Positions 2,946 to 59,919 of a stretch of 64,000 nt of DNA are shown here, in pieces (position 1 is the first letter of the stretch; every line of letters starts with the position of its first letter). The DNA is from a virus (lineage: Duplodnaviria; Caudoviricetes): IMG/VR virus record IMGVR_UViG_3300011335_000278, positions 3,447 through 67,446 of that record, one strand, 5' to 3'. The notes under the pieces were generated by a model. That model searched no databases, was not told where the DNA came from, and was given only the letters and a program-made list of their open reading frames with translations. A program made the position numbers and the translations under genes.

Positions 2946-3342
2946 TAATCAACGCTTGTTTACGGGGTGGGTTATGAATAGAATTAGGGATACTAATGTG
3001 AGTCCATCGGTCAAACTCACGAATAATCTGGTCATAGCCTAAGTCAGAAGCAATTACAGCTTTAACAACTTCATCCGGAATCATACCCGGAACCCTTATG
3101 TCGGCAGCGCAACCAACCCTATGCTGACTAGTATCTTTGCTACCAACAGCATCATTAACCAATTTAGAGCGGAAAGCACTATTAACCATAATGGGCTTGT
3201 TTCCCAGTAGTGTTTTAACTTGTTCAAGAAACTCTGCAAGACGTTGGAGGTTCGCAGTCTCACTATCATTAGGGCTATTATCCAATGTACGATGGTCTGT
3301 ATGCGTAAGTTCTTCAAGTGTAAAGTGCTCCGTTAAATTCAT
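2896..3342 (-). CDS. Peptidase M15 family Zn peptidase, probable endolysin
   Basis: NSAFRS...SQHRVGCAADI...WTHIS metal-binding motifs; adjacent to the holin. Confidence 0.85.
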   Translation of the reverse strand: MNLTEHFTLEELTHTDHRTLDNSPNDSETANLQRLAEFLEQVKTLLGNKPIMVNSAFRSKLVNDAVGSKDTSQHRVGCAADIRVPGMIPDEVVKAVIASDLGYDQIIREFDRWTHISIPNSIHNPPRKQALIIDKQGTRLYGTAKATV

Positions 3343-3755
3343 TTTTTACCCTTCATATCCATGATTTTCTCAAGGGTTCTGCCGCCAAAGTAAAAGGACA
3401 TAATGAGCATACCCCACTGCCCAAGCAACTCAACATAGTTGTTGTTCACTTCAACATCCCATGCGGACATCATACCAAAAGTAGTGTAAGTTACCAAGAT
3501 AAATACTAGCGTCATTGGGCGAATGTTCTTAGATAGCCAAGAGTCTGACATCATGTCGGCTTGAACCCGCTTAGTCAATTCTTGTTGCTCGTTCATGTCT
3601 GCTTGTAATTTAGCCAACTCCCCTTGTTGAGCAAGTTGTTCTAAGGCTAGTTGCGCCGCTGCTTTTTGGTTTGGGTCAGGAATTACTTTATCAATAATAT
3701 TTAAACCAATTTTAACAACCTCATCAATTCCGAACATTAGTTTTCCCCTTTTCAC
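3339..3755 (-). CDS. Holin ('holin of 3 TMs' type); likely start 3737 (MFGID)
   Basis: DKVIPDP...SDSWLSKNIRP followed by two hydrophobic helices and YFGGRTLEK; immediately upstream of the peptidase. Confidence 0.75.
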   Translation of the reverse strand: MKRGKLMFGIDEVVKIGLNIIDKVIPDPNQKAAAQLALEQLAQQGELAKLQADMNEQQELTKRVQADMMSDSWLSKNIRPMTLVFILVTYTTFGMMSAWDVEVNNNYVELLGQWGMLIMSFYFGGRTLEKIMDMKGKK

Positions 3756-4002
3756 GTTCCTCTAGCAACTGTACTTTGACTTGCAGTTGATGTATATCTC
3801 TGTAAATTTCTTCTTTCATTGCATGACGCTTTTCGGCTGAAAGAGGTGAGTCAGTTGGCACATTTTCTTTAGTGATTAACGCTGGCATCTGCCCTTCAAT
3901 CTTAGTTAGCCGTGTAGAAAAGTCTGATACCTGACCAAGTAGCCACGCTAAACACGCTACTACAATCGGCAATACTGCTTTTAAAATGTCTTGTATATTC
4001 AT
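3724..4002 (-). CDS. Small membrane-anchored coiled-coil protein in the lysis cassette
   Basis: N-terminal hydrophobic helix (AVLPIVVACLAWLLG) and a charged helical C-terminus. Confidence 0.6.
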   Translation of the reverse strand: MNIQDILKAVLPIVVACLAWLLGQVSDFSTRLTKIEGQMPALITKENVPTDSPLSAEKRHAMKEEIYRDIHQLQVKVQLLEEREKGKTNVRN

Positions 4003-43047: not shown

Positions 43048-43413
43048 ATGCCTTACAAAGGGGGTTTTATGATACAACTTATTTTGCCTTATCCACCTAG
43101 TGTAAACCACTACTGGGGAGTGTCTGGAAAACAAAGATTTATTGGCAAAAAAGGGAAGATATTTAGAGCCGATGTTTTAGATGCCATGGTTGATTTTGGC
43201 GGCACTGAACTAACTGGCAGACTCTCTGTGCATGTGTCGTTGTTTCCACCTGATCGCAGGAAACGAGATCTAGACAATGTTTTAAAACCATTGTTAGATG
43301 CTTGCGAACATGCTGGTTGTTATGTAAATGACTCCCAAATAGATGAGTTGCACATTATCCGTCAAGACATTCGACCTAACGGATCTTGCACAATTATCAT
43401 CTTAGAAATTTAA
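43048..43413 (+). CDS. rusA: RusA-like Holliday junction resolvase; likely start 43069
   Basis: LPYPPSVNHYW...PPDRRKRDLDNVLKPLLDA...NDSQI. Confidence 0.9.
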   Translation: MPYKGGFMIQLILPYPPSVNHYWGVSGKQRFIGKKGKIFRADVLDAMVDFGGTELTGRLSVHVSLFPPDRRKRDLDNVLKPLLDACEHAGCYVNDSQIDELHIIRQDIRPNGSCTIIILEI

Positions 43414-46400
43414 AACCCAGCCTGTTTTCTTCTTTCTATAACATCTTTAAGGATGTTTTCTTTTGTTTGCTGGAATTCTAAAATCTTTTGCCTACGTTCA
43501 TCTGGCGTACCTGTTTGTTTAGACTCGCCATACATTCTAATAATGCGATTTATTTCTGCTAAACTTGCACCCACCCCTTGAGTGTAACCGTGCATTTCAA
43601 TTAACTTTTGATTTTCTTTAAGGAACTTCTCCGCTCTTTCGTGTTCTTGGCGTGTTGGCCCATGTAAGTTTTGGAAAGTTTTATATGCAGTATCAGTTTT
43701 AGATTTAAGGTCATAGAACAAGTCTTCCCTGCCTCTTTTTACATCTGCCATAACAAACCCACCATACAATGGATTGTCTTTGTCCTGCGGCGTTACACGA
43801 TCTCCGTTGAATATGTTTGAGCCATACATGGCTATAACGCCGGCTGATCCAAATAGTCCACGCACAATGTGGTCTGCTTGTATTGGAGAGAGCATTCTAT
43901 TATCAGTCAAAGGAATGCTAGTCAAAGCACTTATTATTTTTCCTAATTCAGAAGTTTTTTCATTGTATTGTTGTGCTGGAATTAAACCTTCTAAACCTTT
44001 TGGCGTTACTGTAGATCCTGTAAAGAAACTATAATCTAAACCAATTTCAACAAACGGCAATGCGCCAGACGGTATGGGTGTTGGCCCAAGGAATGCATCC
44101 ATGGCGGCTGTCATTAGTGCTGTACGCAACCGCCTGTTATCTACTTCATTCTTGGTGCCATCTTTAGTAACATAGTTGTATAGCATTTCTGGCACAGATT
44201 TGAAGAAGAAGCTGGCAGACGTATTCATTGGAATTTTAATATTTAATCCGGGAATATATATGTTGCGTAGCTTAGTTTGGTCATCTAACTTGTTGTATTC
44301 ATCATCATCACCCACCAACATACAATAAATCATTGTTGTGCCGGCTAACAGTGCGCCAGTTTTTAACATTTGGTTAAATAACTCTTCTCGTGTTTTGCCT
44401 TTAACTCCACCGCCACGCAATGTCTCTGCTAACACATCAATAGACACAGCGTATGCATTCATAAATGAAACATTTCTAGCTAAAAACTGTGCTTTTGCTG
44501 AACTACCTTTTTTAAGGAAGTCTATTACATCATTAGATTGAATTAACGCCTGCATTGGGTTGTTTGTTTCTTTTAAAACCTGTTTGTAAACACCAATACG
44601 CTGTGAATAATCAGATGCATCACCAACCTTATCAATAAGGTTTAATGTTTTTGCCCAAATTTTATCGTCAATTAAACCAAGTTTAATTTGCAATTCTTTT
44701 TGTGGAGATCTTGCCACTGATTGATAACCGCCAATGCCGTATGACTTTAACATATCTACAATTGGGTCATTAGGTAACAATGCTTGTACAAATCCTGCGT
44801 AAGCTTTTGCCCATAACGCAAATGGATTTTTTACTCCGCTAATCCATGCTGCAGCCGGCGCATCTTTAAATGCTTGTTTTAACTGAAAGTATCCTGAAAA
44901 TGTAATACTTCTTCGTAAAATGTTTGACGTAATTGCCAAAATGTCATTCATTGGAATAAATATATTTTCTAATCCAAGTACAGATTCAGCTATTAATGGA
45001 TCTTCAATTTTAACAATGCTCTTTTTACCATTAATTCGTACATTATATTTAACACCTGTTCGATCTTGTTTTTCACTTTGATATCGAACAATCTTACCGT
45101 TTGGTGATCTAACAGCGTATTCAGCCGTAATACGATTTGCAGCGTAATTTTTGATTGAATTGCGTGTCATCATAGCTATGTTGTTTAGCATATTATCTAT
45201 AATGTCATCAATTTCAGGCAATGTTTCTACATAATCTGCAATTACTTGATCCAATTCTGCCTGCGTTATTTCACCGGCATCAAATTTAGCTTTAGCCCTT
45301 TTAACTTTTGGAACTTCTCTAAACTCTTGTAGCTTGGCTATATTTGTTAAACCACGCACAGCTGTTTGTGTGGCTGGCTGTCTGGAAACAGAATGTATAT
45401 CATCATCCTCTTCCATAATTCGTTGCCAAGGAACATAATCTTTTATTTCTTTTAATCTATCAACTCTTTCCTGACCTAAATATCCAGAGAAGGCCGCCAT
45501 ATCTAACATGTTTTGGTTTACTTTTGTCCAGTTATCTAAGATAGCTCTTAATTCTGGATAATCATTTTCCATTTCTAAGAAATCGTCTATTGCTTCTTGG
45601 CTAAATCGTACCTTTACTCTTGCACGGAAGACATCTTCTAAATGAGCTTTTGCTGTTTCTAATTTGGCTAAAGTTTCTAAGTATTTTTCATCTACTACCG
45701 TTAGTAGTTCGTCTTGTAATTCTTGTATACGATTTTCTGCTGTTTCATATTCATTTAAGATACTTTGAGATCTGGCTGCCTCAAGGTAATCATTAATCAT
45801 ATTGGTAGCATCTTGCAATCCAATTTTTTTAACTAATTTAGATTTTTCCCGCATTACATTTGCCATTCCAAAATTTCTTCTTACCGCTTGGAACATTTGT
45901 GTGGCTTCATTAAACTCTAAAGCCCCACGGGCAATAACTTCTGTAGCTATATGGCCTGCATGAATAGCATTAATTAATGAAACATACGAAGTGGCTTGAC
46001 CTATGCTGTTGACTAACTGACCCCCATACTTTTTAATATCCGCCAGTTTTAATCCGGTACCAAAGAAAGTAGCTTTATTGCGGAAATTAACTAACGCACG
46101 TTCTGCGTTACTTGTCATGTTATTAATTGGCGCAATTGGATCTTTTCTTAATTCATCAAGCGCTTGTTTACCACCAGTAAGCATGTCTTGAACAGTGGGC
46201 GATTGGTTGGTTGGAGTATTTTTAACTCTGTTATGTTTAGCACGTTTTCTTCTGTAATTTTCATCTCCGGAAACCCGACTAAAGTAACCAGCAGTGCCAG
46301 CCCGTTTTTGTTCTTGGCGCTCCCTGTTAATTTCTGCTTGAGTTTTTACTTGAGCAGTTTGCAAAGATGGGAAGTTTACTGGCTCTGTACGACCAACATA

Positions 46401-49400
46401 CTGTTCGGCAGCGCTCAACAGCTCAACGATGTCTCCATCAGAAAAACTAATAGTAAGCCCTTGGCTTCTTAACCAATTGCGTATGGCTTGTATAACACGC
46501 TGTATTAGCCCTGTTTTGTACATGCCACGCTCTGCCATGTTGGCTACAATTTCTTTTGCCCTACGCTCCGGTGATAATCCGGGCTGTGTTTGATCTACTC
46601 TGGCAGCTATTCCTTTAACAAGACTAGAAGTCTTTTCTAAATTTTGTATATTTTTAATTAACACTGCCATTAGTTCTGGTCCCAACATCTCTTCTAAGAG
46701 AGCATGACCAATGGCTTCGTGGGCTAAAACTTGTTGTACTCGTTTTGCATTTGGTAAATTATCTGCAATTAAATATACAGTTCTACCTGATATCCACATT
46801 CCCTCTACATCAGACGGAGCAGTGTTGTCAGGCAACTCATCTACAGACTGTAAAACATTAACTGTAATTCCTTTTACAGGAACAACTTGTGCCTGAACTG
46901 CCTCAACACTTTGTCCACCTTCGGCAACAGTGCGTGATGCTAAACCTTTTTTAGTCTCACTGTTATCAAATTCAACTTTCATTACTTCACGAGCAAACGG
47001 CGCATTATCTGCTTCTACTGTTGCTGGAAAATTTTTATGTAAAAACTTTATTAATTTTATTAATTTTTCTGGATCTTTTAAAGAATAACCGGGACCCATT
47101 TCCCATTTTCCTTTTCCTTTTTTAGAAAGATCAGGACCCGGAATTAAAGTTTTAAGTATTGGATTTGTTACAAATTTCTTTGGCACATCTCCTGCAATCG
47201 TAACTTTAAAATTGTCCGGTGTATACGGATCAATTCGTAATTCCCATGTTTGTGCTGATCCGCGCAATATGACAGCGTTTGATGGCCTTGCTTCTGCTTT
47301 GTCAGCAAAACTTGGTAAATTAGGAATCATTAAAGGTTGCAAACTATTACTTAAGTCTTTATACAATTCAACTTGAGAAGTGTCATATCTTTTTTGTAAT
47401 ATTGCATCCCAAACAGCTAACAAATATTGTGCGGCAGATTCTTGATTTCTTAATCGAATTGGTTGTTCGCTAATTGCAACTGGTACATATTTAGCTGGCA
47501 TAACCACGCCTGATATTGCTTCTTTAGTATTGTTTAATGTAAATTTAGCAATTTCACCGCCATTTGGGCCAAATAATTGGGCAGCTTTTAATATGTTTCC
47601 TAAAGCTATATATCTTGTTGTTCTTCCACCAGTTACGGACTTTAATGCAAACCATTCGTCCAAAGGAGGATTTCTCCATGGGCCACTTTGTTGAATTGAT
47701 GAGCCTTCTAATGTTGCTAAAGTTGGGGATACTCTACCTTCAGGAATATTCCGTTTAATAATAACTTGAAAGTTTGATGGTGAATAAGGATTTCCAGTTT
47801 TTGATTTTCCTATTCGTGCTTTATCTACTTTCAATCCAATAACTACAGCAGCAGCTGGAACATTGTTAACTTCAAACGATTCAAATCCATTACCTATGGC
47901 ATACACGTTTTTTAATGCCGACAAAGTTTTTTCTTTACGGTCATTTAAAGTAGCAAATTGTGTATCTAATGCAGTTTTTTGTTTGTTTAATTCTGCTATA
48001 TCTTTTTCAGTTGCTGCTGGATTTTTTATAGCCTCATCAAGTGCTTGTTGTTTAAGAACAATTTGATTACGCACTTCAATATAAACCGTACTTAAATCTG
48101 TTTCTATTTCATTAACAACGTCTTGCGCTGTTCTGCCGTTTAATGCAAGAGCTATATCATCTTTTATATTTTGTACAGTAGGTATAGAACCAATAATGTC
48201 TACGTTAAACTGTGCCATTACAACATCGGTTAAAAATGGGTTTGTGCTATCTAAACCTTCTTCAATTAAATTTTCTTTAATTATTTCTGCTTCTAACGGC
48301 AACACCCTACGTTCTAAAGCATTTGTTCCTGTAGCATTTCTTAAATCTATTTCTGCTATATAGCTGGCCTCAATAGAATCAAAAAATTCTTTTTGGTCTA
48401 CTGATGATAATAACCCTGCTGTTCCTGATGCTGTATGCGCCAAATCGGTTCCAGCTGCTTCTGCTGGATCTGGGTATTGGGTTACATTTAAAAATGCTTG
48501 TATATCTGGATGTTCATTTAAGTATTCCGCTGTTGATACATCGCCGTACATATTAATAAAATCTACGCCGTCAACTTTTGTACTACTAGATCCGCCAGAC
48601 GTATTTGATTTTAAACTAGACAATTTTTTACGCAACATGGCTAAAATTCGTCTTTCAGCTGGTATTCCAGTTGCTAACATAGTAAATGAAGGCCATTCTA
48701 CTTGGCCTGTTCTATGTATTCTGCCTAATAATTGAATAAAAACACTAATGTCCCCATGTGGTTGCAATACAATCATGTGCCGTGGGCGTTGATCAAATGC
48801 ATCTACTGAGGCATGTAACGATATACCTGTTGCGCCAGCTGAGTTAATTATTAATACATCAATTGGTCCTGTTTTAGATTCATCGCCATTTTGGAATGAC
48901 GAAATCATACTTGTGCGTTCAGGATTATCTAAAGTTATATATTTTGGTATATCTCCAGAATAATCTATTCCACTTTTTCTTCCTGTAATTTCTTTTACAA
49001 CCAAATGTCTTGCTTTAACCCCTTTAGGTGGCGTGTCACCAACATGTACTTTGCCATCAATAGTCCACACATACTTTTGTTCTAATTCTGTGCGTATGTA
49101 ATCAATTGGCGCAGCCGGCAAATCTGATTGAAAGTTTATAAGAGCATTTTCAACATTGTTATATCCAGCTCTAATTGATGGCGGCATTACATCATTAGGA
49201 ATATATACAACTTTATCCATTGATTTATCGCCAGTAGCAGATTTTAAAGTTACTTTTTTAGTAGAATTTACAGCACGTTTAATTAATGTTTGCCATCCAA
49301 AATCAGGAATGTCATCACCTTTTTTAATATTATTCTGTGTAACAAAATCTTCTAATGCGCTACCATTGGTATTTTGTAATCCCACAACTACTTTTTCATT

Positions 49401-52400
49401 GTTGTTTAGTTTTTCAACAACCATGTCCACAGCAGTTTGAGTTTTAGTTGATAGTAATAAAGATCCAATATAGTTATGAACAACAGATGTAAACGCATTA
49501 GCTTTTACTTGATTAAATGCTGTTGGTCCAACTTTGCCAATATACGATCCCGGAGGGCCTAATTTAACTATTTCAGCTTGGCCTGCAGGAGTTTTCATCC
49601 ATTCTTTTAAAGCTCGATCTGCGTTAACTAAAGCTCTTAATATTTCTGTAACTTTGTCAACTTCTCTTGTATCTCTTGCAGTATTTTTATCATCAATTAC
49701 AAAGTCCATTGTTACGCCTTCATACGATCTTTCTCGGCGTATCATTGAACCAGATTCTACTAACATTTCTGAAGACACCTGTTGCAACACATCAGTTCTT
49801 ACGCCTTTACCAAACAAAGCGGTTAAATCTTCTGGAGTGTCGGCGGCATAACGTAAATTTGTATGGATATACAACGGCATATTATCTGGACGTTTTGCAA
49901 ATGTAGCAGACAAATAAACCGTTGGCGGTGGTTGCCAATCATCGGGAGCATCTTGGCCTTTACCTAACAAATCTTTACCTGTTAACAAAGACATAAAGAA
50001 AGCATTTTGACCAGTTGATTCTTTGTCGGCTGGTGATCCGGCAGCGTTATGGGCTTCATCCATAATTAATACAGCATCACCGCTTGCAACTAAAGATGCT
50101 ATTGCTGATTGTCTTGGTGGAGATCCTGTGCCGCCATTTAATTGCGAATATGTTGTAAATAAAACATCTTTACCCGGTGGTAATTTTTTATTTTTTGTTA
50201 TATATTCAACTAATTTTTTACTATCGCCTTCTTTATTTTTAAATACTGATTGTGTTTTGCCTTCCCCAATGTCTTTAATTATTTCTGAATCTGTGTTGGT
50301 CATGGCAACTTTAATATCTCCGTGACCAATATTAATTAAATCTGCATACATTGCAGTGTATAAAGAATCACTAAGAGTAACAAATACGGGAACTTTTCCT
50401 TGTTTTTTTGCCCAAACAATCATGGCTGCCGCTGTTCTGCCTTTGCCTACGCCAGTGTCATCGCCAATAATAAAACCTTTGCCAAGTTTATTGGCTTGAA
50501 TTGCTAACGCTAATGCGTCAATTTGGTAGCCGGCAAGACCTTTTGCCATTTGGTCTACAGATGAATAACCTAATTCTTGGGCAACAAATTCATCTATGTT
50601 ACCAACTTGCGCCTCTAAATTTTCCAACGCTGTATAAGCATGCTGTGATTGCGCACGGGGCAAGTAAATACCATCGCTTGCAAATCTTGATTTGCCTAAA
50701 TAAACAACTCGTGATTCTGTATCAATTGGCTCACTTTGTACTGGTGTTTGATTTTTAGGTCTTCTTTTTACTGTTGTTCTAAGCCCATTAATATATTGGC
50801 GTAAATGAACTTTAATTAAATCACCAAATTTACTAACTAATAAATCATAAACTTTGTTAATGCGTTCTTTTGTATCTTTAATTTTTTGTCCAACAGCTTC
50901 CCAAACTTTTTGAATAATTGGTTGTACGTTAGCATAATCTTGATCACCTTTTCTAGAATAAAGCCCACTGTTAGGATCATTGCTAGTATTTTTTGTATTT
51001 TGAGCAATACGATCCATTGCTTCTTGAGATTGTTTGTCTAAACGCTCTTGGCTATCTTCTAAAGTTGGTTCTTTATTTGTTACTTCTGGCGCTTTACCGT
51101 TTAATGCAGCATCTAAATCATCAAGCAAACTTTCAAGTCCTAAACCTTCTAATTCTTTTGGAATAACTGTTTTAACTCTAACTTTTTGACCTTTAGGCGC
51201 TCTTGGTCCGCTAACAACTTTAGGTTCTCCTTTAGGTGTTGTTGTTCCTGTTTTTGGTTTTTTTCCTAAATTGTCAAATATATCGTCTAAATCTAGGTCA
51301 GAAAGTCCTCCCAGTTCATCTCCTGATTCTCCACTTGATACCTCGCCTCTTCCGGTGGTGCCGGCTGCGCCACTTCCGGATCCCCCTCGTTGACCTTCTC
51401 CGCTATCCTGCTGCTGTTCTGTATCACGAACTCCACCAGCTGTTCCACGTCCTCCGGATTTGGGAGGTATGTTGACCCCTCCTGTCGGAGATACTGGTTC
51501 GCCGATGCCAGCGCCCGTTCCAGTCCCCACTCCTCCGCTAGTTTCGACATCTTCAAAACTATCGCTTGTTGGTACTCTTCCGGTTGTTGTATCTGCACCG
51601 CCAGTAGGTTTCCGTGTTTTTCCGGTACCCACCACGACTTGTTCGCTACGATCACTGGCTTGAACATATCTGCTCCATAATTCATCAAATGATGTTAATC
51701 TATTAACCGCAAAATCATTTGGATATACATTGTCCGTTTGATTTCTACCGGCAATAACTAAGACACGCAACGGAAAAGACGCACCTTGTTTACGATATAA
51801 ATTTCCAGCAATTTCAAAATGGTCAGCAACATTATAGTTACCATATAACCAATTTAAAAATATTTTATCTGTTGATGTAATAGTATTTAATTTAGGATGC
51901 GATCCTAATATTAAAAAAGCTCTACCATTATTTGCCATTGTTCTTAATGATTCAGCAGCAATTAATTGATCTAATGCACCAATTTTGTAAGGTTGACCTG
52001 TCCAAGACATAACATCTACAGGAGATGGCAATGATCCAAATGGTGGATTTGCAAGAACTACATCTACTTGTTGATCTTGTATATCTTTTATTTTTACTAA
52101 TACATCGCCTTCTATTACATCACCCATTTGCATTAACTGTAAATTATTAACACGGTGTTCATCTTTTTCTATTGTGGTTACATTTTTAGGGTTAGCCGTA
52201 ACTACCAACATTCCATTTCCGCCAGTTGGGTCTAATACTGTAGTAGTAGATTTAACACGAGACAACATGCCGGCAATAAATCCAATTGGCAAAGGAGTAG
52301 AGTAGGCATTATTAGTTTTACTTAATATAGTTTGAACATCTAATACAGGTTGATTTTGATACAAGTTAACAATGTAATCATAAATAGCTTTAGTATCTGA

Positions 52401-55400
52401 TCCTTCTGCCCGCATATCAGTAATAACTTGACTAACAAACCTTGTTGCTGCTGCCTCAAAATCTTCTTGAGTTTGTTTTAATTTAATCCGATCACCTTCA
52501 AAATCGGCAATTTTATAACTGTCTATTTGTTTTTGGTCTTTAGCAGGGTTAAATCCCAATAGTTCAGGTGATTGTAAGTACGCTTTTATGCCATATTCAG
52601 CTAATTCACGGTTGTTCTTAGGCCACCATCCTTGACGCATATGGTAAAACATAGATTCAGCCATTGAACCATTTTTAATTTCAGGCCATTTAAACAAGCC
52701 CATTTCTTCCATAATGGCATCAATCCGTTGTGCCATATTGATAATGTGTTGGTTTACTTTGCTAATTTGAATTAATCGTGGCGTTAATATTTCTTCTCTG
52801 CCATCACGTTCTTCTTTAGCTTGTTGTGCTTCTGCTTCAGTTTTAAACCAATTTAAACCACCAGCTTGCCCACGATCAATATAAAACTGATCAACTACTG
52901 CATAGCCTAAATCTTCTACATAAATAATTTGATTTTCTAATTTGTATGTTTTTACTTCTAAAGTATCGGGATCAATTTGATCCAACATCTGTTGATATAT
53001 TTCATTAATTTGAGCACGTTCTTTACCGGCTGGGTAAGAAGTTCCAGCATACCCATTCTTTTTAGATACATATCCATCTGCAACTGTTGGGCCAACAAGG
53101 TATGGGGAGCCGCCTTTTGACAAATCAAATATTAAAGATTCAAAAGCCCTAGACAACATTTCTACTGGAGTACTCCAATATTTTGGATCTCTACCTTGGT
53201 CTAATGCATACGCATCTTTAAAATATTGCGTGTAAACAAATGAATCATCATAAATATCTGCTTCATGGTAACGTCTATTTGAAATTGCATTAAAAAATGC
53301 TTTTTTAGGCGGAATGTTACGGTTGTTTTCACTATTTGATGTATTAGTTAATATATCCCGTAAATTATTTTCTACTTTATCTACAGTTATAATTTTTTGT
53401 AACGCAGCTCCTGTATCAGTCATTAACAACTTGCCATTAGGAGTTTGTTTTAAATTCCAATCTAATCCGTGTTGCCATTCATGCCCTAATGAACCATCGC
53501 CTTTTGTTTTGGTTAAGTTTATTTCATTAAGAGATGGAAAATACCAAGCCGCAGTTTTACCGCCACGGCCTTGCGCACCTACTGCTAGTTTTAATTTTTG
53601 CCCCAATCCCAACATATGGGGTGATATACCGGCAATATCCGCTAGGTCATACATTGCATCGTAAATTGCATTTAAATGCGCTGCTCGTTCTGTTTGATTA
53701 ACCCAATTACCAAAATCAATACCACCCGGAAAAAATTTAAATGTTTCTAAAAAGTCTTGTACATCTACATCTCGTCCTTGCCGGTGATCACGCATGCCAC
53801 GGCGAATAATGTTACCTAACTCTGGTGGGCTTTCTGCATCTTTCTTAACAATTCTGTTTGTTTGATCAGTTGAATTTTCGTTAAGATTAAATAAAGAAAA
53901 TAATGTGTTTAAATAAATAGACATATTATTTTCAGTAATTTTGGTGCGTAAATTTAATCCATCTGGAGTGTATTTTTCAGCTCCTGTTAATTGCTCATCC
54001 TTAATATATTTTGTTTGTAATGCGTTAAACAACGGTGCAACATTAGAATTTTCAGTAAATACAGTTTGTAATTGTTCTAAAGTATTTACATACTCTGTTA
54101 ATACTTCTTTAATTAAATCTTCTTTACCTTCAGCTAATGCTAGTTTGATAACTTGACGCTTACCAGCTTTAGGTGGAATGTATATATTAAATCGTCCACC
54201 CTTTCTTGTTGGTAATGAAATTATTTCATACAAATAATCACCGGCTGACATAACTTTATCTATCAGCCCTTCTTTAAACATCATTGCACCAAACGTATTA
54301 TCTGGATTAGATTGAATGTCAAATATTTTGTCTTTACTTGCCAAATCTAACATTTTTGTTATTTGTGCATCTGTTGCATCTTTTGGCAATGGAGCTGCGG
54401 TAATTTGACCTTTACGATTTTTTACAAATTCTGCACCGCCACCTTCAATAGTTATTCTTTCAGGGTTAAATAATGCTGATATGGTAATTCTTTCAGGCCC
54501 TGTATATGCTGGATCATCTGTAGTTGCTGGAACAGATCGGTCAGTAATACGAAATTTGTTTGCAGTTAATTGTTCTTCTATTTTACTTAAAAAAGATAAT
54601 TCAACTGGAATACGCAATAACATTTCTTCTGGAAAAATAACAGGCAGTAAGTTTTCATCAACAGCGTGACCATATAACAGCGCTGCAACCTCATCTGCAT
54701 TGCCAGTTTCCATGGCAACCTTCATTGGGTTTGTATTAAACTCTTCTACTTTCTTTTTTTGTTCTTCAGCTTTCTTTTTCTTTTCGTCCGCAGCTTTTTT
54801 CTCTTCTTCTTTTTTAGCCTTCTCTTCTTCAATGGCTTTCTTTTCTTCTTCAGTTGGTTCTACTTTTGCTGGCTTTTTTGGCTTTTCTTCTTTTGGTTCT
54901 TCTAATGGCTTGCCTGCCGGTGCTGATGGACCGCCTGTTGGCTTTTCTTCTGTTGTGGTTTTTTTAACTTCTATTTCAAAACGCTGCCGAAGAAATTTTC
55001 CTTTGTCTACGGTATTTGCTTCTAAACTTTTACCTGTATGTAATATAGAATTAATTTGCCATGTTCTTCCTTCGTATTGAAATTTATCTCTTAGATTGTA
55101 TTTTCCTGCTGGTAATTTAGGTAATACCTTTTCTTTCGGTTCTTTTTTAGGCATTGCCAAAATTTGATCAGGCGTAAAGTTTGCAATCTGTTCAATATCT
55201 TTTAATAAAATTGGTTTGTCTGTATCTTGATCGTGGAAGCCGTATAAAATTTCACCGTTTGCGTGTCGGCTTTCAGCGTCTTCTCTTGATGTTACTTCTT
55301 GCCCATTGTCAATTATGTCTTTTAAAGTATATATGGGTTCTTCTACAGGTTCTGCTACTCCTGCTGGCGGTAAAGGTTCTTCAGCTTTTTCAGCTTTAAT

Positions 55401-57461
55401 TTTTTCTAAAATTTGGTAGATATTTTCAGCAGCTTTTTCACCTTCGTCATAATCAACTGGCATCATATCTTGATTAGGATCTATGCCTAATGCTTTTGCT
55501 GTTGGCAAATTACCCATTTGATCACGGATATCGCCAATTCTTTCATTTAACTCATCAGCTGCGGCTTTTAATTCTGGTACGTTGTAGAAGTTGTTTATGT
55601 CTTCTTCAGATCCTTTGTTAAACCAACCGTCTTTTGGTCCATTTCCAAAGTATGGATACCATTGACCAGTGGCAACATTAGTTTTGCCACCTCTACCTGT
55701 GCTTATATAAAATGGTACTTTAACCCCATTAATATCTTTAAGTACAACTACTCGGTTGTTTGTTACAAAAGGTTCACTTTCTAATACTTCTTGTGGTTTG
55801 TTTTCTTCTCGTAACTTTGATGCTGTTTCAATTAATGTTTGTTTTTCTGGTGATTCTGGCAATAAGTTAATAACATTATCAATTGGGTGATCAGCGTTTT
55901 CTCCTACTGCCCATACTTGACCATCATCAAAAAATATAGTTTCTGGATTTAGATCAATAACATCTGTTTCATTTGTTATGCCATTGTCATCAAATACTGG
56001 AATAACTGTTTTGCCATCTTTTATAACTGCCGGAGCTGATGGCCCACCAATTGGTTGTATAACTTCAGGTTGTGTTTCTGGGGTTACACCACCTACTGTA
56101 GGCGGTATTACTTCACCACCGGTTACAGGAGGAACTGTTGGTGGAATTGCTAATAAATCTTCTACTGTTGGTGCGGATGGTTGAATGCTTGGGGGTAGTG
56201 CTGCCCCACCTACTGGAGTAGTAAGCGGCGGCTCTGTCTCTACATCTGTTTCTTTAATTGCTCCAAATGTTGGTTTGCCTGTTGGCGTAATTGGTTGTTC
56301 CGCTTGTTTCTTTAATGCTGCTAATCCTTGTTGTTCTTCTACATTTTTTCTGTATGTTGACACAGCATCTAACGGAGCACCAAAGACTTCGCCTATACCT
56401 TCTTCTATTATTTGTCTTGGGTTTACTTCTTGTTTACCAATGAATGAACCAAGACCTTCACCAGCCATACCAAATCCAGCTTGTTTGCCGGTTTCTTTTG
56501 CAAGCTCTTTTGCTGTAGCTTTTATTGCGCCAGTTTCTATTCCTTTAATAACTTTACCGGCAGCTGTTCCAGCAGAACCAAACGATGCAGCGTCAAATAT
56601 TCCAATAATGGCAGACTTAACTCCAGCCATCTCCCATGCATCTTTGTGTTGAAATCCTTGCTCTCTTAATTGGTTATAGTTTTGACCAAACTCTGTAAAT
56701 GCAGAAGTTGCACCACCAGCCGTCATTGCAGCCGCATTTGATTTAAATCCAAACCGAGCAGCAATACCTGATGCAGCCATAGATATAGATGACGGTAAAC
56801 TTTCTAAACCTATAGAAGCAATGTATTCAGGTATTTCTTTTGGATTTCTTATTAACTCGCCACCAATTGCAGACAATTGCGCTAATGTATCTGCATTTTT
56901 AAACTCAGGTGTTTTTTCTAGTGCATTTAATTTTTTAGTAATTAAATTTTCACCATATTTTTCTGTAATTAAATCTTTAGTTTTTTTATTTTGTTGTTGT
57001 TGATACAAGTAATTATTAATATCAATGTCACGCTCTTTAATCCTTGCCATTTTTTCTGGCGGAGCATTTTCATAATTGAAACCGTAAGTTGCTTTATCAG
57101 CTGCTTGATTTTCAAGTAGTGTTGATAATTTATATTCTGCTGGCAGTTCTGAAAACCCTAAAATTCCTTTTGCTGATGCTGCTAATAACGGACGTTCTTT
57201 GGGTTCTTCTTCTTTGGTAAATTGTTTATATGGATTGATTGTTACCGGCAAAGCATTGGCTAATGCTTGTGCTGGTTTGGCAACATAGTTAGCTAAAAAA
57301 TCTGCAACTTTTGTATTTGGAACTAAGGTTTCTAATCCTTTTGCTTCTGGCCTTGGTGCATTTGGTAATATATCTTTTTGTATAGTGGCTGTAATTGCCT
57401 CCGGAGACATGTCCTTTGGAAACTCTACTACCCCTACATAGGGGATATTTACTTTTGTCAT
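43410..57461 (-). CDS. Giant polyvalent protein, 4683 aa: zincin-like/LPD1-type domain, N6-adenine DNA MTase, strawberry-notch-type SF2 helicase, second zincin-like motif, LPD38-like C-terminus
   Basis: HEWQH at 53469-53483; LDPTGGNG and NPPF (52038-52049); GDDTGVGKGR (50436-50465); DEAH (50049-50060); GATGISLH and GRIHRTGQ; HEAIGH (46704-46721). Last gene of the ejection-protein operon. Confidence 0.85.
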   Translation of the reverse strand: MTKVNIPYVGVVEFPKDMSPEAITATIQKDILPNAPRPEAKGLETLVPNTKVADFLANYVAKPAQALANALPVTINPYKQFTKEEEPKERPLLAASAKGILGFSELPAEYKLSTLLENQAADKATYGFNYENAPPEKMARIKERDIDINNYLYQQQQNKKTKDLITEKYGENLITKKLNALEKTPEFKNADTLAQLSAIGGELIRNPKEIPEYIASIGLESLPSSISMAASGIAARFGFKSNAAAMTAGGATSAFTEFGQNYNQLREQGFQHKDAWEMAGVKSAIIGIFDAASFGSAGTAAGKVIKGIETGAIKATAKELAKETGKQAGFGMAGEGLGSFIGKQEVNPRQIIEEGIGEVFGAPLDAVSTYRKNVEEQQGLAALKKQAEQPITPTGKPTFGAIKETDVETEPPLTTPVGGAALPPSIQPSAPTVEDLLAIPPTVPPVTGGEVIPPTVGGVTPETQPEVIQPIGGPSAPAVIKDGKTVIPVFDDNGITNETDVIDLNPETIFFDDGQVWAVGENADHPIDNVINLLPESPEKQTLIETASKLREENKPQEVLESEPFVTNNRVVVLKDINGVKVPFYISTGRGGKTNVATGQWYPYFGNGPKDGWFNKGSEEDINNFYNVPELKAAADELNERIGDIRDQMGNLPTAKALGIDPNQDMMPVDYDEGEKAAENIYQILEKIKAEKAEEPLPPAGVAEPVEEPIYTLKDIIDNGQEVTSREDAESRHANGEILYGFHDQDTDKPILLKDIEQIANFTPDQILAMPKKEPKEKVLPKLPAGKYNLRDKFQYEGRTWQINSILHTGKSLEANTVDKGKFLRQRFEIEVKKTTTEEKPTGGPSAPAGKPLEEPKEEKPKKPAKVEPTEEEKKAIEEEKAKKEEEKKAADEKKKKAEEQKKKVEEFNTNPMKVAMETGNADEVAALLYGHAVDENLLPVIFPEEMLLRIPVELSFLSKIEEQLTANKFRITDRSVPATTDDPAYTGPERITISALFNPERITIEGGGAEFVKNRKGQITAAPLPKDATDAQITKMLDLASKDKIFDIQSNPDNTFGAMMFKEGLIDKVMSAGDYLYEIISLPTRKGGRFNIYIPPKAGKRQVIKLALAEGKEDLIKEVLTEYVNTLEQLQTVFTENSNVAPLFNALQTKYIKDEQLTGAEKYTPDGLNLRTKITENNMSIYLNTLFSLFNLNENSTDQTNRIVKKDAESPPELGNIIRRGMRDHRQGRDVDVQDFLETFKFFPGGIDFGNWVNQTERAAHLNAIYDAMYDLADIAGISPHMLGLGQKLKLAVGAQGRGGKTAAWYFPSLNEINLTKTKGDGSLGHEWQHGLDWNLKQTPNGKLLMTDTGAALQKIITVDKVENNLRDILTNTSNSENNRNIPPKKAFFNAISNRRYHEADIYDDSFVYTQYFKDAYALDQGRDPKYWSTPVEMLSRAFESLIFDLSKGGSPYLVGPTVADGYVSKKNGYAGTSYPAGKERAQINEIYQQMLDQIDPDTLEVKTYKLENQIIYVEDLGYAVVDQFYIDRGQAGGLNWFKTEAEAQQAKEERDGREEILTPRLIQISKVNQHIINMAQRIDAIMEEMGLFKWPEIKNGSMAESMFYHMRQGWWPKNNRELAEYGIKAYLQSPELLGFNPAKDQKQIDSYKIADFEGDRIKLKQTQEDFEAAATRFVSQVITDMRAEGSDTKAIYDYIVNLYQNQPVLDVQTILSKTNNAYSTPLPIGFIAGMLSRVKSTTTVLDPTGGNGMLVVTANPKNVTTIEKDEHRVNNLQLMQMGDVIEGDVLVKIKDIQDQQVDVVLANPPFGSLPSPVDVMSWTGQPYKIGALDQLIAAESLRTMANNGRAFLILGSHPKLNTITSTDKIFLNWLYGNYNVADHFEIAGNLYRKQGASFPLRVLVIAGRNQTDNVYPNDFAVNRLTSFDELWSRYVQASDRSEQVVVGTGKTRKPTGGADTTTGRVPTSDSFEDVETSGGVGTGTGAGIGEPVSPTGGVNIPPKSGGRGTAGGVRDTEQQQDSGEGQRGGSGSGAAGTTGRGEVSSGESGDELGGLSDLDLDDIFDNLGKKPKTGTTTPKGEPKVVSGPRAPKGQKVRVKTVIPKELEGLGLESLLDDLDAALNGKAPEVTNKEPTLEDSQERLDKQSQEAMDRIAQNTKNTSNDPNSGLYSRKGDQDYANVQPIIQKVWEAVGQKIKDTKERINKVYDLLVSKFGDLIKVHLRQYINGLRTTVKRRPKNQTPVQSEPIDTESRVVYLGKSRFASDGIYLPRAQSQHAYTALENLEAQVGNIDEFVAQELGYSSVDQMAKGLAGYQIDALALAIQANKLGKGFIIGDDTGVGKGRTAAAMIVWAKKQGKVPVFVTLSDSLYTAMYADLINIGHGDIKVAMTNTDSEIIKDIGEGKTQSVFKNKEGDSKKLVEYITKNKKLPPGKDVLFTTYSQLNGGTGSPPRQSAIASLVASGDAVLIMDEAHNAAGSPADKESTGQNAFFMSLLTGKDLLGKGQDAPDDWQPPPTVYLSATFAKRPDNMPLYIHTNLRYAADTPEDLTALFGKGVRTDVLQQVSSEMLVESGSMIRRERSYEGVTMDFVIDDKNTARDTREVDKVTEILRALVNADRALKEWMKTPAGQAEIVKLGPPGSYIGKVGPTAFNQVKANAFTSVVHNYIGSLLLSTKTQTAVDMVVEKLNNNEKVVVGLQNTNGSALEDFVTQNNIKKGDDIPDFGWQTLIKRAVNSTKKVTLKSATGDKSMDKVVYIPNDVMPPSIRAGYNNVENALINFQSDLPAAPIDYIRTELEQKYVWTIDGKVHVGDTPPKGVKARHLVVKEITGRKSGIDYSGDIPKYITLDNPERTSMISSFQNGDESKTGPIDVLIINSAGATGISLHASVDAFDQRPRHMIVLQPHGDISVFIQLLGRIHRTGQVEWPSFTMLATGIPAERRILAMLRKKLSSLKSNTSGGSSSTKVDGVDFINMYGDVSTAEYLNEHPDIQAFLNVTQYPDPAEAAGTDLAHTASGTAGLLSSVDQKEFFDSIEASYIAEIDLRNATGTNALERRVLPLEAEIIKENLIEEGLDSTNPFLTDVVMAQFNVDIIGSIPTVQNIKDDIALALNGRTAQDVVNEIETDLSTVYIEVRNQIVLKQQALDEAIKNPAATEKDIAELNKQKTALDTQFATLNDRKEKTLSALKNVYAIGNGFESFEVNNVPAAAVVIGLKVDKARIGKSKTGNPYSPSNFQVIIKRNIPEGRVSPTLATLEGSSIQQSGPWRNPPLDEWFALKSVTGGRTTRYIALGNILKAAQLFGPNGGEIAKFTLNNTKEAISGVVMPAKYVPVAISEQPIRLRNQESAAQYLLAVWDAILQKRYDTSQVELYKDLSNSLQPLMIPNLPSFADKAEARPSNAVILRGSAQTWELRIDPYTPDNFKVTIAGDVPKKFVTNPILKTLIPGPDLSKKGKGKWEMGPGYSLKDPEKLIKLIKFLHKNFPATVEADNAPFAREVMKVEFDNSETKKGLASRTVAEGGQSVEAVQAQVVPVKGITVNVLQSVDELPDNTAPSDVEGMWISGRTVYLIADNLPNAKRVQQVLAHEAIGHALLEEMLGPELMAVLIKNIQNLEKTSSLVKGIAARVDQTQPGLSPERRAKEIVANMAERGMYKTGLIQRVIQAIRNWLRSQGLTISFSDGDIVELLSAAEQYVGRTEPVNFPSLQTAQVKTQAEINRERQEQKRAGTAGYFSRVSGDENYRRKRAKHNRVKNTPTNQSPTVQDMLTGGKQALDELRKDPIAPINNMTSNAERALVNFRNKATFFGTGLKLADIKKYGGQLVNSIGQATSYVSLINAIHAGHIATEVIARGALEFNEATQMFQAVRRNFGMANVMREKSKLVKKIGLQDATNMINDYLEAARSQSILNEYETAENRIQELQDELLTVVDEKYLETLAKLETAKAHLEDVFRARVKVRFSQEAIDDFLEMENDYPELRAILDNWTKVNQNMLDMAAFSGYLGQERVDRLKEIKDYVPWQRIMEEDDDIHSVSRQPATQTAVRGLTNIAKLQEFREVPKVKRAKAKFDAGEITQAELDQVIADYVETLPEIDDIIDNMLNNIAMMTRNSIKNYAANRITAEYAVRSPNGKIVRYQSEKQDRTGVKYNVRINGKKSIVKIEDPLIAESVLGLENIFIPMNDILAITSNILRRSITFSGYFQLKQAFKDAPAAAWISGVKNPFALWAKAYAGFVQALLPNDPIVDMLKSYGIGGYQSVARSPQKELQIKLGLIDDKIWAKTLNLIDKVGDASDYSQRIGVYKQVLKETNNPMQALIQSNDVIDFLKKGSSAKAQFLARNVSFMNAYAVSIDVLAETLRGGGVKGKTREELFNQMLKTGALLAGTTMIYCMLVGDDDEYNKLDDQTKLRNIYIPGLNIKIPMNTSASFFFKSVPEMLYNYVTKDGTKNEVDNRRLRTALMTAAMDAFLGPTPIPSGALPFVEIGLDYSFFTGSTVTPKGLEGLIPAQQYNEKTSELGKIISALTSIPLTDNRMLSPIQADHIVRGLFGSAGVIAMYGSNIFNGDRVTPQDKDNPLYGGFVMADVKRGREDLFYDLKSKTDTAYKTFQNLHGPTRQEHERAEKFLKENQKLIEMHGYTQGVGASLAEINRIIRMYGESKQTGTPDERRQKILEFQQTKENILKDVIERRKQAGF
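51293..51667 (-). CDS. Candidate overprinted gene (124 aa, +1 frame) nested in the giant gene
   Basis: GGAG-5 nt-ATG at 51667; natural-looking acidic helical protein MFKPVIVANKSWWVPEK...EMNWEDFLT; local GC 53-63% versus 28% in a nearby part of the host gene. Confidence 0.55.
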   Translation of the reverse strand: MFKPVIVANKSWWVPEKHGNLLAVQIQQPEEYQQAIVLKMSKLAEEWGLERALASANQYLRQEGSTYLPNPEDVEQLVEFVIQNSSRIAEKVNEGDPEVAQPAPPEEARYQVENQEMNWEDFLT

Positions 57462-57462
57462 A

Positions 57463-58641
57463 TTATTTTACTGGAACAAGTTTGCCATCTTTAAGTTCAT
57501 AATCTACTTTGCCGGGTTTTGCTGGCATCCACCATGGAGTTTTTTCTGGCTCAGCTGCTGGCGGTTTAAAATCATTATCTAATCTTGGTTTTGGTCTAGT
57601 TAATCCCAATAAGTCTAATTGCGCTTGTGGAACAGTTAAGTCATACTCTTGAGCAGCATCTAATAATGCTTGATTACTATTTCCATTATATTTAAACTTT
57701 TTAATTTCATCTGTCATTAAATCTCTTGCTCTGTCTCTTATAAAAGTTTGTCTTGCTGTTGCAGCGCTAGATATTAATGCGGCTTCTTTTGTACTACGGG
57801 CAGCTGCAAGAGTTGCTTGAATTTGCTCTAGTCCTAATTTTTTGGCATCAACCGCAGCTTGCGCTTGAATTAATGCATTTAATCCACCGACCCTACGCTG
57901 TTCTTTAAATCTTTCACCTTCTATTTGATTCTGCAATAACAGTTTTCTATCTGCTTGTTCTTGTGCGCTAGATGATGCTAATGATTCTACACCTTTTTGT
58001 GCGCCTTTTCCAACATTTGTAAAGAAATAAGGTGAATCTCCTGCTAACATTCCTGCAGCCATATTAGCTAAAGCCAAATTGTTACTTTGGCCTTTTCTAT
58101 CTTGCATTTCTTGTGCATACTGTTGTGCCATTAAATCCGATTTTTCTGTTGGATTAAAATCTTTTTGTGCATCTAATGCTGCCCTAATGTCTGCTTGATA
58201 ATCTGTTGCAATAGGCTGTTTGTTTCCTTTCACCTGATCACCAGCTGCAAATGCAATAATACCACCACCCGCAAGTTGCATAGGTGGAACTGGGTTAGAT
58301 GCTATACCTACATCTGCTGGGCCTTGTGGCTGTTGCGGTTGTTGTGCCATTTGATTCTGTTGTGGCATAGGAGGAGGCATTTGTCCCATAGCTTGTGGGT
58401 TTTCTGCATTTGCATTTTTAGCCATAATCTGATCCATTATGGACTGTTGCGGAACTCCACCTTGGGCTGCTTTTGCTTTTGCGGCACGGTCAATCATGTC
58501 AGCTTTTTTAGCAAGAATGGCTGGCACCATTTCCGGAACAATTTCTTTCCGTTGTGCCATTTGCATAATCATAGTCTGCGGTAATTTAGCTAAGTCTTCA
58601 ATAGACCCGCTTTGTTGTTTGATTGCGCTTAATATACTCAT
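57463..58641 (-). CDS. Probable ejection/internal virion protein, 392 aa
   Basis: Gln/Ala/Met-rich and helical; MQLAGGGIIAF motif; between tail genes and the giant protein. Confidence 0.6.
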   Translation of the reverse strand: MSILSAIKQQSGSIEDLAKLPQTMIMQMAQRKEIVPEMVPAILAKKADMIDRAAKAKAAQGGVPQQSIMDQIMAKNANAENPQAMGQMPPPMPQQNQMAQQPQQPQGPADVGIASNPVPPMQLAGGGIIAFAAGDQVKGNKQPIATDYQADIRAALDAQKDFNPTEKSDLMAQQYAQEMQDRKGQSNNLALANMAAGMLAGDSPYFFTNVGKGAQKGVESLASSSAQEQADRKLLLQNQIEGERFKEQRRVGGLNALIQAQAAVDAKKLGLEQIQATLAAARSTKEAALISSAATARQTFIRDRARDLMTDEIKKFKYNGNSNQALLDAAQEYDLTVPQAQLDLLGLTRPKPRLDNDFKPPAAEPEKTPWWMPAKPGKVDYELKDGKLVPVK

Positions 58642-59909
58642 GATGTTTTACCTATCATATTTGCTAAAGATAATCCGCCAAGTCCAATACCAGCTAATTG
58701 ACTTGCAAAACTAGGAGGAGTTGCTGTAGTTGTTTGCGTACCAAATGCATCACCAAGCGGAACGCCACGCAAAATATTAGACATAGAACCTAATTGTTGT
58801 TCTGGAAATCCTAAAGCTCGCATTTGATCTTGATACTGCGCATCTAATTGTTGTTGTGCAATTTGACGTTCTGTTCCACCGTAAGCACCTAATGCAGCTG
58901 ATCTTGCAATGTCGGCTTGTTGTTGCAACGCACCTTGTTGTCCTAAACCTTGGCCTAACTGACCGTATGTTTGGCCTATTTGGCCTAAACCAGCAGCTCT
59001 TTGCAATTGTGCTGCTTGGTTAGCACGTTGCGCTTCTAAAGACTGACCAGCACCAAGCTGTTGAATACCTAATAATGCTTGAAGATTAGCTTGATTTGTT
59101 CCTTGTTGAGCAGCTTGATTTGCAAGTTGCGCTTGCATATTTTGTCCAGATCCCAATTGTTGCACTCCTAATTGAGCCTGTAAATTTTGAGCATTTGCAG
59201 CTTGTTGCATTTGATTTTGTGCATTAAACTGTTGTTGTGCATTTTGAAACGCATTTTGTGAGCCTGTAGCTTGTATGTTTCCCATCTGCGTTTGTAAATT
59301 GCGATCTCTTTCGGATTGCATTAAAGCATTTCTTGCCCCACCATAAGTGCCTTGACGAGCAGATCCTAAATTAGCTCCCATCAATTGCTTTTGAGCATCT
59401 CGCATAGCTTCAGCTTTTTGTACATCAACAACGTTTTGCTGATACGGAGACATATACTGAGTTACATTTTGCCCAGTATAGTCTTGAGGACCATTCATTT
59501 GATATGTTTGTAAACCTTGCGCAGAAACATTTTGTGGGCCAGCCATTTGATACTGATTTAAATTAGGTGCGCTTACATTTGGACCGTTTTGATACATTCC
59601 TTGAGCTTGCCCAAGTGAACCCAAACCTTGACCGTATGCTGTTTGTCCTTGACCAAATTGGCTAGGCTGACCAAGATTTGCTAGTTGTTGACCGGCTTCT
59701 ACCTCATTAGAAGATAAACCAGCAACTCTACCAGCGCCTTCTAACCCAGATTGCGATAAAGCGTTACCATATGAAGTGGCGTAATCTCTTCCAAATATTT
59801 CTTGCGCTTTTGGTAGTAGACCTGTGCCAGCAGTACCAGTTCCCGTAAAATACGGTTCTAATACCTCTGGTATTGTCTGTTGACCTGATGTTACGGTAGT
59901 TGTTGCCAT
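58638..59909 (-). CDS. Probable ejection/pilot protein, 423 aa
   Basis: Gln/Gly/Ala-rich; QYMSPYQQNVVD; C-terminal SQLAGIGLGGLSLA hydrophobic segment. Confidence 0.65.
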   Translation of the reverse strand: MATTTVTSGQQTIPEVLEPYFTGTGTAGTGLLPKAQEIFGRDYATSYGNALSQSGLEGAGRVAGLSSNEVEAGQQLANLGQPSQFGQGQTAYGQGLGSLGQAQGMYQNGPNVSAPNLNQYQMAGPQNVSAQGLQTYQMNGPQDYTGQNVTQYMSPYQQNVVDVQKAEAMRDAQKQLMGANLGSARQGTYGGARNALMQSERDRNLQTQMGNIQATGSQNAFQNAQQQFNAQNQMQQAANAQNLQAQLGVQQLGSGQNMQAQLANQAAQQGTNQANLQALLGIQQLGAGQSLEAQRANQAAQLQRAAGLGQIGQTYGQLGQGLGQQGALQQQADIARSAALGAYGGTERQIAQQQLDAQYQDQMRALGFPEQQLGSMSNILRGVPLGDAFGTQTTTATPPSFASQLAGIGLGGLSLANMIGKTS

Positions 59910-59919
59910 GATTTATCCT

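Follow-up and report, generated by a model that had tools for sequence, protein, structure and literature searches.

A small gene of 124 codons is very probably nested inside the gene for a giant polyvalent protein of a tailed phage. Both genes are located on the minus strand of the window, a 64,000-nucleotide stretch corresponding to positions 3,447 to 67,446 of IMG/VR record IMGVR_UViG_3300011335_000278. The record represents a complete 67-kb phage genome with genes for terminase, portal, capsid, tail fibre, Erf, and exonuclease. The nested gene is offset by +1 relative to the giant gene and overlaps the linker between the N6-adenine methylase domain and the Strawberry-notch (Sno-type) superfamily 2 (SF2) helicase domains of the giant protein. 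A separate overprinted gene at this position had been proposed in the preliminary description of the window, and the proposal is now supported by conservation among relatives, the distribution of substitutions over codon positions, the synonymous conservation of the start codon, and a confident fold prediction.

Position and composition of the nested reading frame

The giant gene encodes a large polyvalent protein of 4,683 residues. Four regions of the protein match Pfam domains with scores above the Pfam cut-offs: LPD1 (residues 1420–1496), AAA_34/ResIII (2311–2588), Helicase_C_4 (2822–2967), and LPD38 (4386–4549). The N6-adenine methylase domain spans approximately residues 1730–1930, contains the NPPF motif at residues 1804–1807, and ends at the sequence ELWSRY near residue 1930. 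An N6-adenine methylase with an NPPF motif, followed by an SF2 helicase in the same polypeptide and accompanied by LPD domains, is the arrangement of DarB-like dyads. Polyvalent proteins with methylase-helicase dyads were described as anti-restriction factors that are packaged and injected (Iyer et al. 2017, PMC5512222). By analogy with DarB of phage P1, the giant protein may be packaged in the virion and delivered together with the DNA (PMC5512222).

The +1 frame is free of stops for 131 codons, from a TTG at 51688 to a TAG at 51295–51293, alongside residues ~1925–2056 of the giant protein. This open reading frame (ORF; 51293–51688) lies wholly within the giant gene. Translation from its ATG yields a product of 124 residues followed by the TAG stop, and the spacer between the ATG and the preceding GGAG is exactly 5 nt. 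The extent of the ORF, the position of the ATG, the GGAG with its spacing, and the lengths of 131 and 124 codons had been given in the preliminary description and were confirmed on the sequence; the placement of the ORF between the methylase and helicase domains likewise agrees with the Pfam matches and the position of the NPPF motif. The letters of the GGAG come from the giant-frame Trp-Ser codons (TGG AGC) of the conserved ELWSRY motif, and the nested ATG is formed by a giant-frame Tyr codon, TAT, and the G of the next codon. An upstream TTG (51688–51686) and an upstream ATG (51685–51683) are in the same frame and have no Shine-Dalgarno sequence at a proper distance; they are used as starts in some database calls, with products of 130–131 residues.

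The giant-frame linker encoded by the same DNA contains 26% Gly, is rich in Thr and Ser, and is open but poorly conserved in sequence. The overlap has a GC content of 54–62% over 51280–51580, compared with ~30–37% in the surrounding DNA. This island had been noted before and is real, but its earlier attribution to giant-frame codons ending in G or C holds only in part. The excess is mostly at giant-frame codon positions 1 and 2 (0.67 and 0.63, compared with 0.50 and 0.38 gene-wide), whereas the GC content at third codon positions (GC3) rises only from 0.21 gene-wide to 0.32. In relatives, the nested ORF has 53–60% GC at loci with an overall GC content of 38–51%. The high GC content may result from the exclusion of AT-rich stop codons from two frames at once in an AT-rich genome.

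Openness, conservation, and selection in the overlap

The openness of the +1 frame was compared with chance expectation by keeping the giant protein fixed and redrawing its synonymous codons according to codon usage, by local shuffling of codons, and by an exact calculation. For the +1 frame of the segment, chance would predict approximately five stops, and none is present. The probability of observing no +1 stop is 5.5e-4 under synonymous resampling, 3e-4 under the local codon shuffle, and 9e-4 in the exact calculation. The linker segment includes 19 residues with T at codon position 2, and the number of stops expected contradicts the caveat attached to the preliminary description, according to which low contents of Leu, Ile, and Val in a linker could allow a long ORF by chance. 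At 133 codons, the run in the overlap is twice as long as any other +1 or +2 run of the 14-kb giant gene (the next +1 run has 66 codons), and the third frame contains nine stops across the overlap. The open +1 run is not due to chance. Conversely, given the nested protein and the codon usage, the probability that the giant frame is open is 1e-6 in this phage and lies between 2e-7 and 5e-4 at further AT-rich loci.

The giant gene contains another ORF that is longer than the nested one, an antisense frame of 155 codons at 56185–56652 (+). As a weak control, five genomes of related phages were examined for a counterpart of this ORF and none was found; it is therefore probably a chance frame, in contrast to the nested gene.

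A word-indexed search identified 88 database proteins that match the nested product at 43–86% identity, most of them 123–125 residues long. A full HMMER scan of cluster representatives (50% identity level) extended the family to 30 clusters with identities down to 29%, nearly all 119–129 residues long and aligned end to end. Such matches are biased towards loci in which the gene caller picked the nested frame. Therefore, loci were re-sampled using the methylase domain alone, which produced 43 viral contigs chosen only by the methylase motif, with methylase identities from 91% to 31% (alignment A2). At all 43 loci the linker contains no stop in the giant frame, and an open +1 run starts from the end of the methylase. 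The +1 runs are 129–217 codons long, except for one of 65 codons that is cut by the end of its contig. The run is also open in distant AT-rich loci (L049 and L050, 44% GC; L052, 42%; L054, 43%; L058, 45%).

A hidden Markov model (HMM) of the close nested family matches 26 of the 43 loci. The products of loci beyond the reach of the model share with it a Met, a W-x-P motif ~8–12 residues further on, an L-x-V motif, an amphipathic helix, and a C-terminal L.(E/D)(F/I)L, and the profile-profile comparison of the distant and close families (hhalign) has an E-value of 1.2e-4. Among the outgroups, the top match of both HMMs, those of the close and distant families, is the homologue from a Picosynechococcus plasmid (PCC 7117/7002), which has a syntenic +1 run of 184 codons with the sequence "RVWIPK...ALFMV". 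Searches against cultured phages with the region (blastn) and with the fused form of the nested domain described below (tblastn) found no match. A cultured Bacteroides phage, BS-TP4 (L089), has a +1 run of 121 codons (3605–3967) at the same junction of a 5,391-residue "hypothetical protein". The run has no detectable similarity to the nested family and possibly represents an analogous nested gene.

The start signals of the nested gene are retained in relatives. A GGAG or GGGAG is positioned 5–8 nt upstream of the nested ATG in most of them, and a GGAA in a few distant loci. Because the GGAG is built from the codons of the conserved ELWSRY motif, its conservation is by itself ambiguous. The ATG is more informative, as the giant-frame Tyr is encoded by TAT in every locus that has the W..VY motif. 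This includes L059, from a relative with 70% GC in which TAT accounts for 2% of the Tyr codons. The corresponding share is 25% for L056, 17–26% for L062–65, 28% for L044, and 35% for L055 and L057, and the multiplied TAT frequencies of the lineages amount to ~1e-5. A +1 frameshift needs no ATG, and the retention of the ATG through the choice of TAT therefore speaks for independent initiation. The nested product would be translated independently from the mRNA of the giant gene, by internal initiation at GGAG-N5-ATG.

A programmed +1 frameshift would instead produce a truncated giant protein that runs through the methylase and ends in the 124-residue domain. The +1 frame is on the same strand and begins exactly where the methylase domain ends, and in some database proteins, of the P0006 type, the domain forms the C-terminal end of a longer polypeptide. 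Nevertheless, a frameshift is very improbable. Besides the synonymous selection that keeps the ATG, the Shine-Dalgarno-like GGAG is located at a canonical distance, a +1-frame stop is positioned only nine codons upstream of the ATG in this phage and its close relatives, and gene callers have recurrently picked the 124-residue form. None of the known +1 shift sites (CUU-AGG-C, or a UUU or CCC that precedes a stop) was seen in the stretch upstream of the nested ATG. A promoter-like sequence, TTTAAA-16-TATAAT (10/12), is present at 51831–51858 (-), ~165 nt upstream of the nested ATG, within the codons of the conserved methylase motif NWLYGNYNV; sites of this kind are no more numerous than expected from shuffled sequence.

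The frame that is constrained in the overlap was identified from a giant-frame codon alignment of 20 close relatives, in which the mean pairwise differences were determined for codon positions 1, 2, and 3. The values are.177/.082/.450 in the flanking methylase domain (gaps in 0 of 200 columns) and.296/.241/.513 in the linker just past the nested stop (43 of 100 columns with gaps), compared with.309/.205/.144 in the core of the overlap (1 of 109 columns). Synonymous sites of the giant frame are thus suppressed approximately threefold in the overlap. Because position 1 of the giant frame is position 3 of the nested frame, and position 3 of the giant frame is position 2 of the nested frame, the periodicity in the overlap is the one characteristic of translation in the nested frame. 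The same order of diversity, with nested position 3 above position 1 and position 1 above position 2, was found in three clades, the close relatives and two independent ones. In the latter two, the overlap values are.264/.128/.108 in L062–65, compared with ~.15/.11/.42 in the flanks, and.354/.212/.239 in L042–43, compared with.18/.09/.44. These alignments show that protein-level purifying selection in the overlap falls on the nested frame, whereas the giant frame behaves as a disordered spacer constrained in length and openness. Together with the low probability of an open giant frame, the constraint on the nested frame indicates that both frames are maintained, the nested frame for its sequence and the giant frame for being open.

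The checks suggested in the preliminary description included a search for relatives among phage protein clusters and tests for suppressed synonymous variation in the giant frame and for conservation of the ORF and ribosome-binding site among homologues. The relatives and the suppression were both found. An open +1 run is present at every methylase-chosen locus, and the ribosome-binding site is retained in most relatives and weakened to GGAA in a few distant loci.

It is extremely improbable that there is no second protein and that the openness and conservation result from the composition of the linker, an RNA structure, or a regulatory DNA element. A linker rich in Gly, Thr, and Ser does have a lowered frequency of +1 stops; its GGN and ACN codons, when read in the +1 frame, specify Glu, Gln, Ala, and Val, which gives the product a "helical" look; and openness alone is unremarkable in GC-rich relatives. 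However, composition does not account for the three-base periodicity of substitutions that tracks the nested frame in three clades, for an overlap nearly devoid of indels next to a segment with 43% gap columns, or for a product length held at ~124 residues down to 29% identity. The synonymous selection on the start codon and the structure prediction from the alignment, with a predicted local distance difference test (pLDDT) score of 95, also argue for a protein, and the lack of conservation of the longer antisense ORF agrees with this.

Several observations weigh against a nested gene or limit its generality. A linker without a nested ORF is present in homologues from an Acinetobacter phage and from a Yersinia plasmid, and therefore the methylase-helicase dyad can work without the nested gene. 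The per-locus probability of openness is weak in GC-rich relatives (0.1–0.5), and three clades are so divergent that the diversity test is saturated and uninformative for them. The Shine-Dalgarno sequence and parts of the N- and C-terminal conservation are confounded by motifs of the giant frame, as ELWSRY gives rise to the GGAG and GDELGGLSDLD overlaps the nested C-terminus NWEDFLT. In the Persicobacter plasmid pPP10 (L092), the methylase (2653–3675) and the Strawberry-notch helicase (3672 onward) are encoded by separate genes that overlap by 4 nt, and both the linker and the nested gene are absent; this arrangement is possibly a pre-fusion or post-fission state of the dyad.

The nested product and its relation to the giant protein

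The nested product has a net charge of -11 and an isoelectric point (pI) of 4.4, and its family is uniformly acidic, with a median net charge of -10, a median pI of 4.46, and a maximum pI of 5.33. The AlphaFold2 (AF2) model calculated from a 78-sequence alignment has a mean pLDDT of 95.2 and a predicted template modelling score (pTM) of 0.87, with no segment below 50. The model contains a beta-hairpin (residues 5–13) with the invariant Trp13 and Pro15, followed by six helices. The domain was predicted again with a pLDDT of ~95 within a second AF2 model, that of a fusion protein. The product is therefore predicted to be a compact acidic domain composed of an N-terminal hairpin and a helical bundle, without a recognisable fold or family.

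Comparison of the model with the PDB and BFVD by Foldseek resulted in E-values of 0.57 or worse, and the best Z-score of a wide VIA-align search of 48,161 chains was 3.3. No meaningful family was found for the nested product in Pfam (none at E <= 0.01), PHROGs, PADLOC, or NCBIfam, and the ESM Atlas contained no usable match. Two specific candidates were rejected. The TnpV model (PF14198) gave no match in the nested protein (E <= 0.01) or in the six-frame translation of the genome (E <= 10), and it is not among the families listed for 78 members of the nested family (E <= 1). A spanin of the Rz1 type was dismissed, as the product has no Cys or lipobox and no N-terminus resembling a signal peptide, and AF2 predicts a globular helical domain.

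The giant frame exits the overlap through a conserved block that consists of GGLSDLDLDDIF, a basic spacer, and then IPKELEGLGLESLLDDLDAAL. The GGLSDLDLDDIF motif (51293–51329, residues ~2045–2056) has invariant L, D, and F in close and intermediate relatives (alignment A6), and its first codons are shared with the nested C-terminus NWEDFLT. The ending of GGLSDLDLDDIF, acidic and then Ile-Phe, is reminiscent of the C-terminal tip of single-stranded DNA-binding protein (SSB).

The block and the nested domain also occur as in-frame fusions among metagenomic proteins. In P0006, P0011-P0015, P0042, P0118-P0120, and P0122 (203–271 residues) the block precedes the domain, whereas in P0039, P0121, and probably P0092 (214–221 residues) the domain precedes the block. 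Some of the fusion proteins are encoded on contigs of 15–32 kb (P0042, 15.4 kb; P0121, 28.2 kb; P0120, 31.7 kb). The occurrence of fusions in both orders suggests that the nested domain and the LSDLDLDDIF / LEGLGLESLL block work together, and the fusions look like unpacked, non-overlapping versions of the same module. Complete related genomes have a single copy of the domain, which is nested. Scans of viral and metagenome sequences for fused or rearranged forms (P0006, P0011, P0039, P0120, P0121) returned only the usual nested arrangement, and a GTDB scan returned no locus. In P0084 (195 residues, from a 1.2-kb JGI contig), the nested domain has no stop and continues in frame into an unrelated, globular-looking sequence; P0084 represents either another architecture or a chimeric contig.

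The nested product is tentatively proposed to be a dedicated partner of the giant protein, either a chaperone for its assembly or packaging, or a regulator of the methylase-helicase. The synthesis of the partner from the same transcript would tie its supply to that of its client, and it may act through the adjacent LSDLDLDDIF / LEGLGLESLL block; the fusions of domain and block fit such a role. In the preliminary description, a hypothetical inhibitor, chaperone, or immunity partner that would keep the methylase/helicase inactive until injection had been suggested. The searches support no specific function, as neither a family match nor a structural neighbour was found in the libraries scanned, and the AF2 model of fusion P0006 leaves the LSDLD/LEGL helices, a part with eight rows in the alignment, at a pLDDT of 56–66 with no confident docking.

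It is conceivable, albeit unlikely, that the nested protein acts alone on the host cell, for example as an acidic anti-defence effector or a DNA mimic, and that the linker merely tolerates a second frame. The uniform acidity of the family and the location of the nested gene within a gene of the anti-restriction, DarB-like type (PMC5512222) are in line with such a role, as is the lack of predicted docking to the neighbouring LSDLD/LEGL motif. Acidity of this kind is expected for a mimic of the Ocr or ArdA type; neither protein is among the matches listed by Foldseek or VIA-align, although absence from these listings does not exclude a family. Beside classical DNA mimics, a charge of -11 and a pI of 4.4 are moderate. 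The acidity is also partly forced by the Gly-rich giant frame, in which GGN is read as GNG, and the in-frame LSDLD/LEGL fusions speak for a link to the giant protein.

A further scenario, considered improbable, concerns the order in which the two frames arose. The small gene would have existed first, as a free-standing gene, and the giant protein would have arisen by wrong-frame read-through of it, with the DNA becoming the tether between methylase and helicase. The product would still be a partner encoded in cis that binds the LSDLD/LEGL block and controls folding, loading into the capsid, or activation after injection, and the fusions would be the unpacked module. Codon usage (nested GC3 of 0.67, compared with 0.21 genome-wide) was considered as a guide to the ancestral frame, but this argument was rejected because position 3 of the nested frame is position 1 of the giant frame, which is set by the Gly-rich linker.

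Directly upstream of the giant gene are three large genes (392, 423, and 909 residues) at 57463–62649 (-), for which no PHROG match was found at E <= 1e-5. The features of the locus are listed in Table 1.

Table 1. Features of the nested gene and its surroundings, in coordinates of the window
Feature	Coordinates	Strand	Description and evidence
Nested gene (very probable)	51293..51667	-	124 codons + TAG; sequence, homologues (120-127 aa, down to 29% identity), codon-position diversity, AF2
Shine-Dalgarno GGAG	51673..51676	-	Sequence and relatives
Nested start ATG	51665..51667	-	TAT conservation in relatives
Alternative upstream starts TTG/ATG	51683..51688	-	Sequence; database calls
Giant-frame linker over the same DNA	51293..51668	-	Residues ~1932-2056; Gly/Thr/Ser-rich, low complexity
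GC island	51280..51640	.	54-62% compared with ~35%; coextensive with the dual-coding stretch
Giant polyvalent gene	43410..57461	-	4,683 aa; Pfam domains
Methylase C-terminal 200 residues	51669..52268	-	ORF-independent probe for relatives
Strawberry-notch-type SF2 helicase domains	48561..50531	-	Pfam
Conserved giant-frame block: GGLSDLDLDDIF, Lys/Pro-rich spacer, IPKELEGLGLESLLDDLDAALNGKAP	51084..51329	-	Residues ~2045-2126; conservation; starts inside the end of the overlap

Significance and comparison with known systems

Among the anti-restriction proteins that phages and plasmids package, the DarB-like polyvalent proteins are the flagship, and a second gene hidden within them would mean that their genetics has been incompletely read. 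Knock-outs of the linker, truncations, and domain swaps in DarB-like genes would also affect the nested protein. The two genes could be separated by a single TAT to TAC change at the nested start, which is silent in the giant frame. The locus provides a clean natural case of dual coding: the protein constraint falls on the hidden frame, and the visible one serves only as a spacer. On full-length contigs, nested genes of this kind are suppressed by standard gene callers, and the database members of the family come almost exclusively from short contigs. Overlapping or frameshifted genes are not mentioned in the description of the dyads by Iyer et al. (0 occurrences of the terms; PMC5512222), and full-text literature searches found nothing describing such a nested gene. 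Nested out-of-frame genes are already known as a kind; the family described here is a new, unannotated family of small proteins.

The giant gene resembles that of DarB of phage P1 in combining, together with LPD domains, an EcoKI/TaqI-like N6-adenine methylase and an SF2 helicase. Phage P1 needs small accessory proteins, encoded by separate genes that are not nested, for the loading of DarB into heads. A further difference is that the helicase of the giant protein is of the Strawberry-notch type. TnpV is similar to the nested product in size and in being a small helical protein of mobile elements, but the PF14198 model gives no match.

Small genes located out of frame within larger genes include Rz1 in Rz of the lambda-type spanins, and B in A and E in D of phage phiX174. 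The nested gene shares with them complete nesting on the same strand (in the +1 frame for Rz1), its own Shine-Dalgarno sequence and start codon, and, presumably, the synthesis of both products from one mRNA. The nested product is acidic and globular and lacks the Cys or lipobox, whereas Rz1 is a Pro-rich lipoprotein. Furthermore, the giant frame in the overlap is a disordered spacer of a 4,683-residue protein, whereas the Rz frame encodes a functional periplasmic domain.

The comS gene of Bacillus subtilis, which is lineage-restricted and encodes a product of 46 residues, is located out of frame within the giant nonribosomal peptide synthetase gene srfAB, inside a catalytic domain. In both cases a very large multidomain gene conceals a small gene in a different frame, and comS is a co-transcribed regulator. 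In contrast to comS, the nested gene encodes 124 residues that form a domain of their own, is positioned in a linker, and is conserved where the methylase domains are only 31–57% identical.

The polymerase gene of hepatitis B virus has a "spacer" that overlaps preS. As in the methylase-helicase linker, two enzymatic domains are connected by a disordered tether whose frame tolerates change, and the sequence constraint falls on the overlapping frame. The two systems belong to different virus worlds and share no homology, and the constrained frame specifies a small soluble protein in the phage, whereas preS is part of an envelope protein.

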